A DNA stretch of 32,113 nucleotides from Bacteroidales bacterium (GCA_007132365.1 SLOS01000409.1:1-32113), one strand, 5' to 3'; shown: positions 986 through 4,695, counted from the stretch's first letter. The notes: generated by a model from the sequence alone, not told the origin. Made by a program: numbers and translations.

Positions 986-2020
986 TCAGATCAGTTCAAT
1001 GCCGTCATCTTTCAGATTTTCCCGCATTGCTTCAGGCCAGACACTGGCCTGGACCTCTCCGACATGATGCTTGCGAAGCAGGAACATACAAACTCTTGAC
1101 TGACCAATGCCTCCGCCCATTGTCTGGGGTAGTTTGCCAGAAAGTAAAAGTCTGTGAAACAACAACTCTTTGCGATCCAGGCAATTTCTCTTTTCAAGCT
1201 GACGCAAAAGTGCACTTTCATCAACCCTTATTCCCATTGAGGATAATTCAAACGCCGATTGTATAATGGGGTTCCAAACGATAATATCGCCGTTGAGACC
1301 TTTGTACTGGTGTCCGGCAGGAGTGCTCCAGTCGTCATAATCAGGTGCCCGCCCGTCATGAATGCTCCCCCCTGGAAGCTCTCCCCCTATGCCTGTCAGG
1401 AAAAATGCCCCGTATTCACGGGCAGCTTCTGTTTCACGCTGTCTGGGCGTGAGTTCAGGATATCTGAGGAGCAGATCTTCGGAGTGGATAAATTTAATTT
1501 CCTCAGGCAATATCGGTTCTATATCGGGATATTTTGCCGATACGGCTTTTTCTGTATCCCGCAGGGCCTTATAGATTCTCTTAACGGTATCTTTAAGGTA
1601 ATGCAGATTCCTTTGTTCTCTTGTAATAACCTTTTCCCAGTCCCATTGATCAACAAAAACAGAGTGAAGGGGGCCCATATCCTCATCGGGCCTCAGTGCT
1701 TTCATATCAGTGATTATGCCCTCTCCCGGATTGATACCAAGTTGTGCCAGCCTGTATCGTTTCCATTTTGCGAGGGACTGGACCACGCTGATCTTTTGAG
1801 ATGGCATATCCCTTATAATCAGTGAAACAGGTCTTTCTATCCCGTTCAGATCATCATTTATTCCTGTATCTTCTGCAACTATCAGAGGGGCTACGACCCT
1901 TAAAAGTTGCAGCTGCTGGCTGAGTAATCCGGAAAAAGTTGTTTTAATCAGATCTATGGCCTTTTCTGTTTCAAGCTGGTCAATCAGTTGAGAGGTTCTT
2001 TCCTTTTGTGCGATTTCCAT
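986..2020 (-). CDS. asnA: Aspartate--ammonia ligase (asparagine synthetase A)
   Basis: AsnA motifs: VVQSLAKWKR, GEGIITDMKALRPDED, HSVFVDQWDWEKVI, HDGRAPDYDDW, GLNGDI, FELSSMGIRVD, LPQTMGGGIGQSR. Confidence 0.98.
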   Translation of the reverse strand: MEIAQKERTSQLIDQLETEKAIDLIKTTFSGLLSQQLQLLRVVAPLIVAEDTGINDDLNGIERPVSLIIRDMPSQKISVVQSLAKWKRYRLAQLGINPGEGIITDMKALRPDEDMGPLHSVFVDQWDWEKVITREQRNLHYLKDTVKRIYKALRDTEKAVSAKYPDIEPILPEEIKFIHSEDLLLRYPELTPRQRETEAAREYGAFFLTGIGGELPGGSIHDGRAPDYDDWSTPAGHQYKGLNGDIIVWNPIIQSAFELSSMGIRVDESALLRQLEKRNCLDRKELLFHRLLLSGKLPQTMGGGIGQSRVCMFLLRKHHVGEVQASVWPEAMRENLKDDGIELI

Positions 2021-2043: not shown

Positions 2044-2074
2044 AAAAAAAAACCCTCCGTTTTGCGGAGGGTTT
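2044..2074 (-). terminator. Intrinsic terminator (attenuator 3:4 hairpin) in the asnA leader
   Basis: Minus strand reads AAACCCTCCG-CAAAA-CGGAGGGTTT-TTTTTT: a perfect 10-bp stem with a run of 9 U, ending 23 nt before the asnA ATG. Confidence 0.92.
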
Positions 2075-2099
2075 CTGTGTTTTGTTTTTGGGTTCCAGT

Positions 2100-2189
2100 T
2101 TAAAGCTTACACATAATAACCTCCGTCCTTCTGAACTGATTATTGTTCAAAGGATTATTATTGAGGTTAAAATTATTTATTACGTACAT
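2100..2189 (-). CDS. Asn-rich leader peptide of asnA (putative asnL), 29 aa: MYVINNFNLNNNPLNNNQFRRTEVIMCKL
   Basis: ATG at 2189-2187 and TAA at 2102-2100. Codons 5-17 include 9 Asn (7 AAT, 2 AAC). It lies between a consensus promoter and the terminator, directly upstream of the Asn synthetase. In-frame ATGs also occur at 2201 and 2210. Confidence 0.85.
   Translation of the reverse strand: MYVINNFNLNNNPLNNNQFRRTEVIMCKL
2117..2169 (-). promoter_or_regulatory. Attenuator protector (1:2) hairpin containing the antiterminator segment
   Basis: On the minus strand, TAACCTC (2169-2163) pairs with GAGGTTA (2123-2117). TCCTTTGAAC (2154-2145) pairs with GTTCAGAAGGA (2136-2126) with one bulge. CGGAGG (2125-2120) can instead pair with CCTCCG (2070-2065) in the terminator 5' arm. 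Confidence 0.75.
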
Positions 2190-2211
2190 GTTGTATAACA
2201 TATTAATCATG

Positions 2212-2242
2212 CAAACATACTATCTATTTTTTAATAATCAAA
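2212..2242 (-). promoter_or_regulatory. Bacteroidota primary-sigma promoter for the asn leader/asnA
   Basis: Minus strand TTTG (2242-2239), 19 nt spacer, TATGTTTG (2219-2212): an exact match to the -33/-7 consensus TTTG-N19-21-TAnnTTTG. Confidence 0.8.
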
Positions 2243-2289: not shown

Positions 2290-4695
2290 TTAGAACGGGT
2301 ATCCGATTGCAAGATTAAGTATCAGATTATCCCTTCTCCAGGAAGAATCAAATGGCCTTACCGGTCCGAAGTAACTTCCAGTCTCATGCAATGTGCGGGG
2401 ATCGGCCAGCGGGAAGGCCAGGTCGAGCCGCAGCAGGAAAAAGTTGAAATCCAGCCTTAATCCAATTCCTGTTCCAAGTGCCACTTGCTTCAGGAAGTCG
2501 GGGGACCTGAATTTTCCACCCGGAACTTCCTCCTGCTCCCTCAGATTCCATATGTTCCCTGCATCTGCAAAAACAGCGCCCTTAAATATACTGCTGATAT
2601 CAAAGCGGTACTCCAGGTTCATTTCAAGTTTTATTTCCCCACCCTGGTAGATATTCAGGACTGTTCCATCTCTGTCCACAGGAGAGTAGGTTCCCGGGCC
2701 CAGTGTCCGGGGATGGAATGCCCGGATACTGTGGCTGCCGCCTGTTATGAATTGTTTGGTGTAGGGCAGGAATTCGGAATTGCCGTAGGGCACCCCGATA
2801 CCTGCTATAAGCCGTGTGGCAATGGTGCCGGTGTTTCCTGTTTCAATGGAATAACGGATTTCGGTGAGGATTTTTGTAAACTGGGAAAATCCCTGGCTTA
2901 AAATAGTATATTCACCCTTGTCATCCAAACTCCCCAGTCCCAGATTATGAAGGAACAGCCATGGCATATTACCTGCCAGGTCAAGGTTTAAATTGATAAA
3001 CCAGTTATGGTTACTGTTTTCAGTCAATTTGGAATTGTAAGTATATGAATACTCCGATCCCAGCATAAACTGTTCAAAAAGGCCCCTTCTGATGAGCAGC
3101 TCCCTGGGAAACTCTTCACCGAATTCCTCTGCTATAGTTCCCAGGAAAAAGGCATTGAAGGCAAATGGTGTGAATCTGAGCTGGGTGCTGATATAGGGAT
3201 TCAGTACATATCCGAATTCCGATCTGATGGTTGAAAGGCTGAAGGCATCGGTACGGTTGAGGTAATTGAAAGACACCGACATCCTTGTCCTCGGAGTAAA
3301 CCGGGGACGTATCCTGACTATATCAAACGGGATCACCAGGCGGTGTATGCTCAGCTCTGACAGGATCCCTGCCTCGTACATATTGATCCCCCTTTGGCTT
3401 GTAAGTGTTTCAAATGCGCCATTCAGCTGCACGGTGAGGTTCTCTGCCCCGCCGCGTAAGTTTCGGTTGCTGAACGAGGTGGTAAAACCGGGGCCTGCAA
3501 AATTATTTGATTTTGAAACACCTTTCAGTTCGGCACTCAGAGCCATCTGTTCCCTTGGAGTAAGTATTATCCGGGCATCCAGATAATTGTTGGCCGGATT
3601 ATTGTTTTCCCTGTCCTGCACCCTGTCGAAACGGATATTTACAAACCTGAAAACCCTCATGCTCATCAGATGGCTGATGGTAAGGAGATGATCTTCATAA
3701 TTGTATGCCCTGTCTTTTTCAAGGAAGATTGCCCGGAGCATGGTTTGAGGTTTCAGAATATCCCGGTCCGGACGGGTGAAAATTCCATCGCTTATCTGAA
3801 CTTTTTCAGCGGTCCCGGTCTCTTTATCCCTTTGGCCCGTCCGTCCGGTCTCAATAATTATGTTCCTGATTTTATAGCTCACCAGCGCTCTGGGTGGTGC
3901 ATCCTCCAGAATGCTCAGATGCAGGTCCACCTCCCTTGTACCTGCTGTACTGTCGGCCCTGAAGAGAATATAGTCGGGGTAAAAGTAATAATACCCCTTT
4001 CCCTTCAGGTAACCGTCAATCCTCTCCCTTTCCTTTTTCAGTATATCCAGTCTGAAAATATCTCCGCTATGTAAAATAGTTTCTTTCATTGAAAGGTTTA
4101 TCTCTTTGGCAATGGGTTTATTTTCCTCCAGAAGTGTTATGTTCCTTATTCTGTAAGCGGGCCTCAGCCGGACATTGAAGTCCACTTCTGTCTTTTTCCG
4201 CCTTTCCCTGAGGCTGTAGTCAACCGAGGCATCAAAATGGCCCATATTGAAAATGCGGTTTTCAATCAACTCGGCGACCCTTTGGATATTGAAATCCTGA
4301 ATAAGCACCGGTGGTCTTCCGGCTTCATTTTGCAACCAGTCCCCTATATTCCATAAAGAGACCTCTCCGCCTATATTATAAAGCCAAAGGCGGGGTCTCC
4401 AGAAGAGGAATCTGCTGTTGGGCCCGGGTCTGATCACCCCTTCTGCCTCTCTTATTATTTCTCTTTCATTCTTTATTGGCTCCCGGGATTCGAGTTTTAC
4501 CCGGCTTCCTGTATAAAGACTCTGATCATCTTCAAGGTACCTCAGGTTGGAACATCCTGTTGTCAGGAAAGCTGCCGGAATGATCAGCAAAAGGAATATT
4601 CTGCCTGTATATGCTATATCTTTACAGAAGCCATGGTCCCGGACCGTCTCCGAACCATGAGATCCATCTGCCCTGTGCCTTTTAATGTTGACCAT
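2290..4695 (-). CDS. tamL: Omp85/TamA-family outer-membrane lipoprotein (TamL-like)
   Basis: Hydrophobic signal with lipobox-like LTTG-C, POTRA-like N-terminal region, and barrel motifs GGSHSIRAF (VRGF-like loop), EYRF, FADAGNIW, GIGLRLD and LRLDLAFP. It ends in AIGYPF and sits directly downstream of tamB. Confidence 0.85.
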   Translation of the reverse strand: MVNIKRHRADGSHGSETVRDHGFCKDIAYTGRIFLLLIIPAAFLTTGCSNLRYLEDDQSLYTGSRVKLESREPIKNEREIIREAEGVIRPGPNSRFLFWRPRLWLYNIGGEVSLWNIGDWLQNEAGRPPVLIQDFNIQRVAELIENRIFNMGHFDASVDYSLRERRKKTEVDFNVRLRPAYRIRNITLLEENKPIAKEINLSMKETILHSGDIFRLDILKKERERIDGYLKGKGYYYFYPDYILFRADSTAGTREVDLHLSILEDAPPRALVSYKIRNIIIETGRTGQRDKETGTAEKVQISDGIFTRPDRDILKPQTMLRAIFLEKDRAYNYEDHLLTISHLMSMRVFRFVNIRFDRVQDRENNNPANNYLDARIILTPREQMALSAELKGVSKSNNFAGPGFTTSFSNRNLRGGAENLTVQLNGAFETLTSQRGINMYEAGILSELSIHRLVIPFDIVRIRPRFTPRTRMSVSFNYLNRTDAFSLSTIRSEFGYVLNPYISTQLRFTPFAFNAFFLGTIAEEFGEEFPRELLIRRGLFEQFMLGSEYSYTYNSKLTENSNHNWFINLNLDLAGNMPWLFLHNLGLGSLDDKGEYTILSQGFSQFTKILTEIRYSIETGNTGTIATRLIAGIGVPYGNSEFLPYTKQFITGGSHSIRAFHPRTLGPGTYSPVDRDGTVLNIYQGGEIKLEMNLEYRFDISSIFKGAVFADAGNIWNLREQEEVPGGKFRSPDFLKQVALGTGIGLRLDFNFFLLRLDLAFPLADPRTLHETGSYFGPVRPFDSSWRRDNLILNLAIGYPF

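Follow-up and report, generated by a model that had tools for sequence, protein, structure and literature searches.

The minus strand of a 32,113-nucleotide (nt) stretch of DNA from a Bacteroidales bacterium (GCA_007132365.1 SLOS01000409.1:1-32113, referred to here as the window) carries a leader ahead of asnA, the gene encoding aspartate--ammonia ligase, and this leader very probably functions as a ribosome-mediated, leader-peptide transcription attenuator in which asnA expression is set by the supply of charged asparagine (Asn) tRNA, tRNA-Asn. The probability of this interpretation, judged from sequence and computed structure, is put at roughly 0.85, and the individual details of the pairing scheme are held with somewhat lower confidence. 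Along the minus strand, to which all window coordinates below refer unless stated otherwise, the end of the tamL gene is followed by a promoter-like site, a short open reading frame (ORF), a GC-rich hairpin with a run of nine U residues (U9), and asnA. The parts that characterize such attenuators are present, which include a short translatable ORF between the promoter-like site and asnA, in-frame codons matching the amino acid made by the product of the downstream asnA, and a terminator between the leader and the gene. They further include a protector that overlaps the Asn codons and competes, through its outer helix, with an antiterminator, and the antiterminator itself, which uses the 5' arm of the terminator and fares poorly in equilibrium folds of the full-length RNA.

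The leader ORF (MYVINNFNLNNNPLNNNQFRRTEVIMCKL plus stop; 2100..2189), predicted from the ORF list, frame comparison and homologous ORFs, spans 29 codons from ATG to TAA. Its regulatory codon cluster (2139..2177) holds nine Asn codons within codons 5-17, as against 0 and 1 when that stretch is read in the two alternative frames. Among the nine Asn columns compared across 13 relatives, 89 positions are identical, 15 are synonymous (AAU/AAC), 12 are non-Asn and one is a gap. The retention of Asn through synonymous codon swaps argues that the leader is translated. The peptide tail, on the other hand, is not kept, the stop lying 73-94 nt from the AUG across relatives, and in one relative (L008) a 1-nt insertion frameshifts the tail while CGGAGGUUA, a string introduced below as segment 2, is retained; hence this segment appears to be selected as RNA. 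Two further in-frame ATGs lie upstream of the leader start, at 2201 and 2210, and they are open in frame because a TAC in the window replaces the stop of the relatives. Most relatives have TTA TAA directly after the first ATG.

The codon pattern also bears on an explanation in which the terminator is controlled by a ligand or a protein (a riboswitch, a T-box or an RNA-binding protein) and the Asn-rich ORF is untranslated. Such control would fit a conserved structure that adjoins a metabolic gene, and Asn T-boxes precede asnA and asnS in Firmicutes, but the Asn codons are strictly in frame (nine versus 0 and 1) and synonymously retained, and the loops and the remaining leader vary and are rich in A and T, lacking any conserved core that resembles a pocket. 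A search of Rfam 15 gave no family at the gathering threshold and 17 weak matches, with neither a T-box nor a riboswitch among them; the T-box model itself had no match among those with E up to 10 in the region 1900-2400. The best weak scores were those of Phe_leader RF01859 (28.6 bits, gathering threshold 55), whose alignment was essentially that of the terminator alone, and His_leader RF00514 (23.4 bits, threshold 49). Regulation by a ligand or a bound protein is thus very unlikely here.

The original prediction had arranged the leader RNA into four segments whose 1:2 (protector), 2:3 (antiterminator) and 3:4 (terminator) helices exclude one another, and all of its strings and coordinates were found to be correct when checked against the minus-strand sequence. 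The protector is built in two tiers. In the outer helix, segment 1 (UAACCUC, 2163..2169, over Asn8-Leu9), seen in the sequence and with RNAfold and RNAalifold, is the exact reverse complement of GAGGUUA at 2123-2117 and forms 7 base pairs (bp). The inner hairpin (2126..2154), found in the minimum free energy (MFE) structure and backed by covariation, has 10 bp, a bulged G2131 and an 8-nt loop; UCCUUUGAAC (2154-2145) pairs with GUUCAGAAGGA (2136-2126) around the loop AAUAAUCA (2144-2137), and Asn15-17 fall in its 5' arm and loop. Segment 2 (CGGAGGUUA, 2117..2125), located by sequence and duplex searches, lies inside the leader ORF at Thr22-Ile25, and its nucleotides 2123-2117 pair with segment 1 and 2125-2120 with segment 3. 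The terminator (AAACCCUCCG / CGGAGGGUUU) has a 12-bp stem and a CAAAA loop followed by the U9 run (2044..2052, read from the sequence). Its 5' arm is segment 3 (AGAAACCCUCCG, 2065..2076; folding and pair counts) and its 3' arm is segment 4 (CGGAGGGUUUUU, 2048..2059; folding). The 1:2 protector and the 3:4 terminator were both recovered unprompted by RNAfold and RNAalifold. The RNAfold MFE structure of 2215-2035, which is also the centroid, consists of 1:2 plus 3:4 at -42.3 kcal/mol (z = -5.0; none of 200 shuffles equal), and the helix energies are -16.5 (1:2), -7.4 (2:3) and -18.2 kcal/mol (3:4).

Two of the proposed features of the antiterminator held in part. The core, CGGAGG (2125-2120) with CCUCCG (2070-2065), is a sound helix of 6 bp, but the suggested UU:AA extension costs energy (-6.3 kcal/mol with it and -7.4 without), and the real extension is an inner antiterminator helix between UGUGU (2109..2113) and ACACA (2076..2080). 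This second helix is obtained by folding and agrees with the genus pair counts, UGUGU:ACACA being paired in 82.9% of cells in the genus. Likewise, the mutual exclusion of the helices applies to the outer 7-bp helix, which shares 2123-2120 with 2:3, but not to the inner 10-bp hairpin, which has no overlap with the antiterminator and coexists with it.

The resemblance between segment 2 and the terminator, ACGGAGGUU (2126-2118) being a near copy of ACGGAGGGUU (2060-2051), had been called unlikely by chance, and this was upheld in two ways. The best complement of the leader to the terminator 5' arm is segment 2, and 6 of 300 dinucleotide shuffles gave a match as good or better. In a control drawn from the genome, the last 9 nt of the 5' arm of each of 181 terminator-like hairpins were paired with the leader; the cognate arm, at -10.9 kcal/mol, was the best of the 181 (mean -6.1, standard deviation 1.8), and it also ranked first of the 87 arms whose G+C was at least as high. 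These figures bear on the notion that the locus encodes a constitutive small RNA or a plain terminator, with complementarity and Asn codons that AT-rich DNA produced by chance. AAU-rich stretches are indeed common in AT-rich spacers, and the hairpin also reads as a terminator of the plus strand. Against this stand the fold z of -5.0 and the first rank of the cognate arm among the 181, the occurrence of the unit before asnA in several families with differing neighbours, and the fact that a single model detects all 26 leaders described below with E <= 1.1e-4, which together make an accident of composition scarcely credible.

The conservation of the pairings was evaluated in 26 non-redundant leaders, of which 14 are from the genus of the window, four from two sister genera, four from a search of related loci (a Salinimicrobium included) and four from a class sample. 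Two duplicates (L030, L046), three loci with no 5' end (L013, L025, L027) and one with no leader (L002) were left out. The 14 same-genus leaders form alignment A1, from which the covariance model R1 that detects all 26 was built, and A3 is a model-based alignment of the 26. In A1, which was not fitted to the structure, 91.6% of the 1:2 and 3:4 positions are paired as against 57.1% in a slid control, with six double-changed pairs and 1 of 500 shuffles reaching the paired fraction; RNAalifold on the same alignment again gave the outer helix, the inner hairpin and the terminator. In A3, which is fitted to these helices, 90.7% are paired (slid control 58.1%), 26 of 29 pairs are changed on both sides and none of 500 shuffles does as well. 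For the 2:3 helix, to which A3 is not fitted, the values are 84.1% paired (slid control 72.7%) and 5 of 6 pairs changed on both sides, with 2 of 500 shuffles equal in pairing and 8 of 500 in covariation. As the leader sequences are related, these pairing statistics are not to be taken as probabilities.

Between lineages the sequences change with the pairing preserved. For example, segment 2 and its arm are CGGAGG/CCUCCG in the genus, GGGAGG/CCUCCC in L044, and GGAAGG(CU)/(AG)CCUUCC in L010, L020, L126, L049, L132 and L133. Similarly, the outer helix UAACCUC:GAGGUUA of the genus is CUUCCCG:CGGGAAG in L020 and L126, and the inner hairpin UUUGAAC/GUUCAGA becomes UUCGAAUA/UAUUCGGA and other pairs elsewhere. 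When the leaders are treated one by one, the 2:3 site outperforms shuffles (p <= 0.05) for 21 of the 26. In 26/26 the site falls within the leader ORF, 3-39 nt ahead of the stop and just 3' of an inner hairpin, and in 25/26 at least half of it is already paired to an upstream segment when the upstream part alone is folded. The protector region has z < -2 in 19/26 leaders, and the outer protector helix is in the MFE structure of most of them. The leaders of the relatives, with their in-frame Asn codons and covarying helices, support the four-segment attenuator of the original prediction.

Several results weigh against the attenuator. The antiterminator core is only 6 bp long, at -7.4 kcal/mol versus -18.2 for the terminator. 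When a 30-nt ribosome footprint was set as a mask at each Asn codon and the full-length RNA was folded, every mask tried left P(3:4) >= 0.945 and P(2:3) = 0.0 at equilibrium; the terminator stays dominant with segment 1 masked, which is the opposite of what had been expected, and in its formal sense this counts against the original prediction. In a ribosome-free nascent RNA ending at 2065, the antiterminator form is favoured by 5.6 kcal/mol, with the protector intact being the poorer state. The 2:3 site is no better than shuffles in five of the 26 leaders (L009, L012, L031, L136 and L140), and the protector has z > -2 in seven. Within the genus the 2:3 helix is nearly invariant, its one double-changed pair being matched by 151 of 500 shuffles, and the MAFFT genus alignment mis-registers L007, L008 and L010 for it; for these reasons the per-sequence duplex searches and A3 were added. 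Across ten lineage representatives, cognate arms pair only slightly better than swapped arms (-12.1 versus -10.8 kcal/mol; 660 of 20000 permutations), in a test that is weak because all the arms resemble CCYUCC. Because a single genus supplies fourteen of the 26 leaders, the counts make the evidence look more independent than it is. A simple terminator scan listed the hairpin on the plus strand only (2050-2074, tail CTGTGTTTTG), likely because the maximal stem on the minus strand consumes part of the U run. Finally, the 20 listed sequencing runs with the window region 900-2400 are all DNA metagenomes, and no RNA run is among them.

The masking of a full-length RNA is too strict a test, as attenuators decide before segment 4 exists. 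Since the full-length RNA always yields the terminator at equilibrium, the switch must be kinetic, and folds of nascent transcripts together with path barriers were used for this reason. In the RNA ending at 2065, the inner hairpin with 2:3 and UGUGU:ACACA has -22.2 kcal/mol and the full 1:2 protector has -16.6, and P(2:3) is 0.83-0.95, masked or not. As the nascent RNA favours the antiterminator even without a ribosome, the protector can work only as a kinetic trap. The barriers, estimated with findpath, are 9.2 kcal/mol from 1:2 to the antiterminator and 9.7 kcal/mol from the antiterminator to the terminator, and they are compatible with a first-formed fold that persists over the deciding ~20 nt of transcription. 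With the usual prefactors, refolding would presumably take ~1 s, which is comparable to the time that RNA polymerase would need for the last ~20 nt.

The same energies could be read as a ribosome-occlusion attenuator with three functional segments, in which the decision would depend solely on whether a translating ribosome sits over segment 2, the 1:2 stem serving for pausing or stability, or arising as a by-product, and not being required as a protector. That segment 2 lies within the leader ORF in 26/26 leaders, that 2:3 is favoured over the outer 1:2 helix in the ribosome-free nascent RNA by the 5.6 kcal/mol given above, and that compact second leaders in relatives have a far smaller upstream stem would all suit such a device. 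Different lineages nonetheless keep the outer helix with both of its strands changed, most of the 2:3 site is already engaged with upstream sequence (25/26 leaders), and the estimated barrier of 9.2 kcal/mol separates 1:2 from 2:3, so that a protector with no role in the decision is unlikely. The preferred reading therefore remains the attenuator with four segments, with the protector taking part in the choice.

In this four-segment attenuator, transcription would start near 2205 from the Bacteroidota-type promoter, and a ribosome would translate the 29-codon leader with its nine Asn codons. From the helices and codons we infer a ribosome that stalls, a footprint that masks segment 1, coupled transcription and translation, and a read-through that determines asnA expression. 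When Asn is plentiful, the ribosome would cross segment 2 and reach the stop at 2102-2100, where its footprint would lie over UGUGU and abut segment 2, and segment 3 would be left unheld; 3:4 would then form, and RNA polymerase would terminate at 2044-2048. When charged tRNA-Asn is scarce, the lead ribosome is expected to stall at Asn5, Asn6 or Asn8, with a footprint of ~2192-2160 that covers segment 1. The free segment 2 may then capture the emerging segment 3 through CGGAGG:CCUCCG and UGUGU:ACACA, and the resulting antiterminator would block the terminator and allow asnA to be transcribed. Without translation, the pre-formed 1:2 helix would sequester segment 2, and termination would be the default. 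The choice would thus be kinetic and not thermodynamic.

Leader-peptide attenuation is well known for tryptophan (Trp), histidine (His), phenylalanine (Phe), leucine (Leu), threonine and isoleucine/valine (Ile/Val), and the present leader is an asparagine, asnA and Bacteroidota addition to this kind of regulator. The best-known case is the E. coli trp attenuator (trpL; Rfam Trp_leader), with four segments and 1:2, 2:3 and 3:4 alternatives. Like trpL, the asnA leader has four segments, regulatory codons in or beside segment 1 and a terminator before the first biosynthetic gene, and its stop follows shortly so that a ribosome that finishes would disable segment 2. It differs in having nine Asn codons in place of two Trp codons and in belonging to another phylum, in a two-tier protector whose inner hairpin survives antitermination, in a segment 2 wholly within the ORF, and in the absence of sequence similarity or of an Rfam match above threshold. 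The hisL (RF00514) and pheA (RF01859) leaders share with it a run of codons for one amino acid followed by a terminator, but they come from another phylum and serve a different gene and a different amino acid. The same function is regulated in Firmicutes by Asn T-box leaders before asnA and asnS, and in E. coli by AsnC, which controls asnA. The T-box signal is likewise the charging of tRNA-Asn, but those systems rely on a tRNA-binding RNA or a DNA-binding protein, and the asnA leader would rely on a translating ribosome. Bacteroidetes also have the cis-regulatory Bacteroid-trp motif (RF01692), which is listed by Weinberg et al., 2010 (PMC2864571); leaders of this type, with IWWWH, stand before trpE in the genome of the window and in its relatives, but they sense Trp and not Asn, and RF01692 gave no match at the asnA leader. 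No report of an asparagine or asnA leader-peptide attenuator was found in searches of open-access full texts; in term searches, PMC2965389 gave zero occurrences of 'asparagine' and of 'bacteroid', and in PMC2864571 the row for Bacteroid-trp in a table was the only match.

A conserved Asn attenuator would add an amino acid to the list of leader-peptide regulators, would mark asnA regulation for annotators of Bacteroidota genomes, and would provide a small, naturally occurring sensor for the charging of tRNA-Asn. It would also be indirect evidence that ribosomes closely trail RNA polymerase in the Bacteroidota. Initiation by Shine-Dalgarno pairing is little used in this phylum, and if the attenuator is real, tight coupling of transcription and translation controls genes in a phylum that largely does without such initiation. 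The mapped helices pinpoint the nucleotides for mutational tests.

The leader is associated with asnA across related genomes. asnA itself is present in 27 of 41 relatives, and R1 matches 18 of 20 family genomes, the two misses being a genome whose asnA 5' end lies beyond the contig (G003) and one from which the leader is deleted (G009). An Asn-rich ORF, defined by at least five N within ten residues, precedes asnA in 23 of 106 loci; these are exclusively from Bacteroidota and include two pairs of duplicates (L008/L030 and L044/L046). An even class sample of 401 genomes had asnA in 20 of them, with an Asn leader ahead of it in 5 of the 20. Roughly half the related loci have, directly before asnA, an additional compact Asn leader with a terminator of its own, forming tandem attenuators between the first terminator and the gene (L004, L005, L007, L010, L015, L016, L026, L029, L031, L077 and L136); an example of the second-leader peptide is MQYFLINNNNNNKSPPARAG, with S-P-P conserved after the Asn run. 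The window has a single unit, which is of the long, distal type, and no second Asn leader, only 23 nt (2021-2043) separating the U run from asnA. It is reasonably probable, with clearly less confidence than is given to the switch in the window, that the leader belongs to an undescribed, Bacteroidota-wide family of Asn attenuators on asnA, which is often tandem, has a two-tier protector and keeps the inner hairpin in the 'on' state, and that this family and the leaders for Trp, His and Phe in the same genome jointly reflect tight coupling.

The closest relative provides a contrasting locus. In L002 (genome G009, AsnA 90% identical), the promoter-like site and tamL are kept, and the leader ORF and segments 1 and 2 are gone; what remains is an altered hairpin, AAACCUUCC...GGAGGUUU, with a larger loop and a U run, and it has no R1 match. 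This locus looks like a natural decay of the switch.

The regulated gene (986..2020) is assigned to asnA by TIGR00669 (E 7.8e-124, 413 bits against a cut-off of 292.8), and it starts 23 nt past the terminator U run. The genome is a Bacteroidales assembly of 2.87 Mb in 439 contigs with 75% completeness, and the locus is present in DNA runs from soda lakes and salt lakes. A profile search of the genome contigs found two full-length copies of the asparaginyl-tRNA synthetase gene above the curated cut-off (C272:5679-7028, minus strand, 626 bits; C78:2353-3678, plus strand, 609 bits), and the presence of this enzyme implies that free Asn sets the charging of tRNA-Asn. No glutamine-dependent AsnB scored above the cut-off in the contigs of this 75%-complete genome. 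Both findings, as well as the further leaders of the genome described at the end, agree with the proposed mechanism.

The promoter-like site TTTG-N19-TAtgTTTG (2212..2242), found by a pattern search and kept in same-genus loci, is of the Bacteroidota -33/-7 type; the pattern has three matches in the window versus 0.68 expected. A small 5' hairpin (2186..2203), seen in both the MFE and centroid structures, includes the leader AUG (2189-2187) as part of its 3' arm, and its motif ATGTTATA(A/C)AACATG is kept within the genus. This motif is a palindrome that directly follows the -7 box and recurs in L003-L012, and in L131 it also lies ahead of a leader rich in Ile, Leu and Val that precedes ilvD.

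The upstream neighbour is the TamL outer-membrane gene (2290-4695), and the hairpin was considered as its terminator. This was rejected, as the promoter-like site intervenes and the unit goes with asnA where tamL is absent, tamL being upstream of asnA in only 4 of 109 loci. Within segment 2 and beyond, the stretch 2112-2124 (minus strand) reads GGAGGUUAUUAUG, a perfect Shine-Dalgarno-like box with a well-spaced AUG that would open a mini-ORF (MCKL). The use of GGAGG as a Shine-Dalgarno sequence for the AUG at 2114 was likewise rejected, as 4 of the 14 leaders in the genus lack the AUG and other lineages carry GGAAGGCU as their segment 2.

Other leaders of the same make-up occur in the genome of the window. 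A WWW leader with a terminator precedes trpE and an HHHH leader with a terminator precedes hisG, and leader-terminator units with FFFFFF and FFFFYF precede pheA-like and tyrA-like genes. Such units are found on contigs C316 (both strands), C367 and C426 and in the relatives L128 and L129. Their peptides include MTNNIWWWHSLLKSYVKHCIC before trpE, ...NHHHHIDVG before a hisG-like gene, ...SSRFFFFFFGVPEKGL before a pheA-like gene and ...WNFFFFYFLNK before a tyrA-like gene, the genes 3' of these leaders being named by eye from their first 60 residues.

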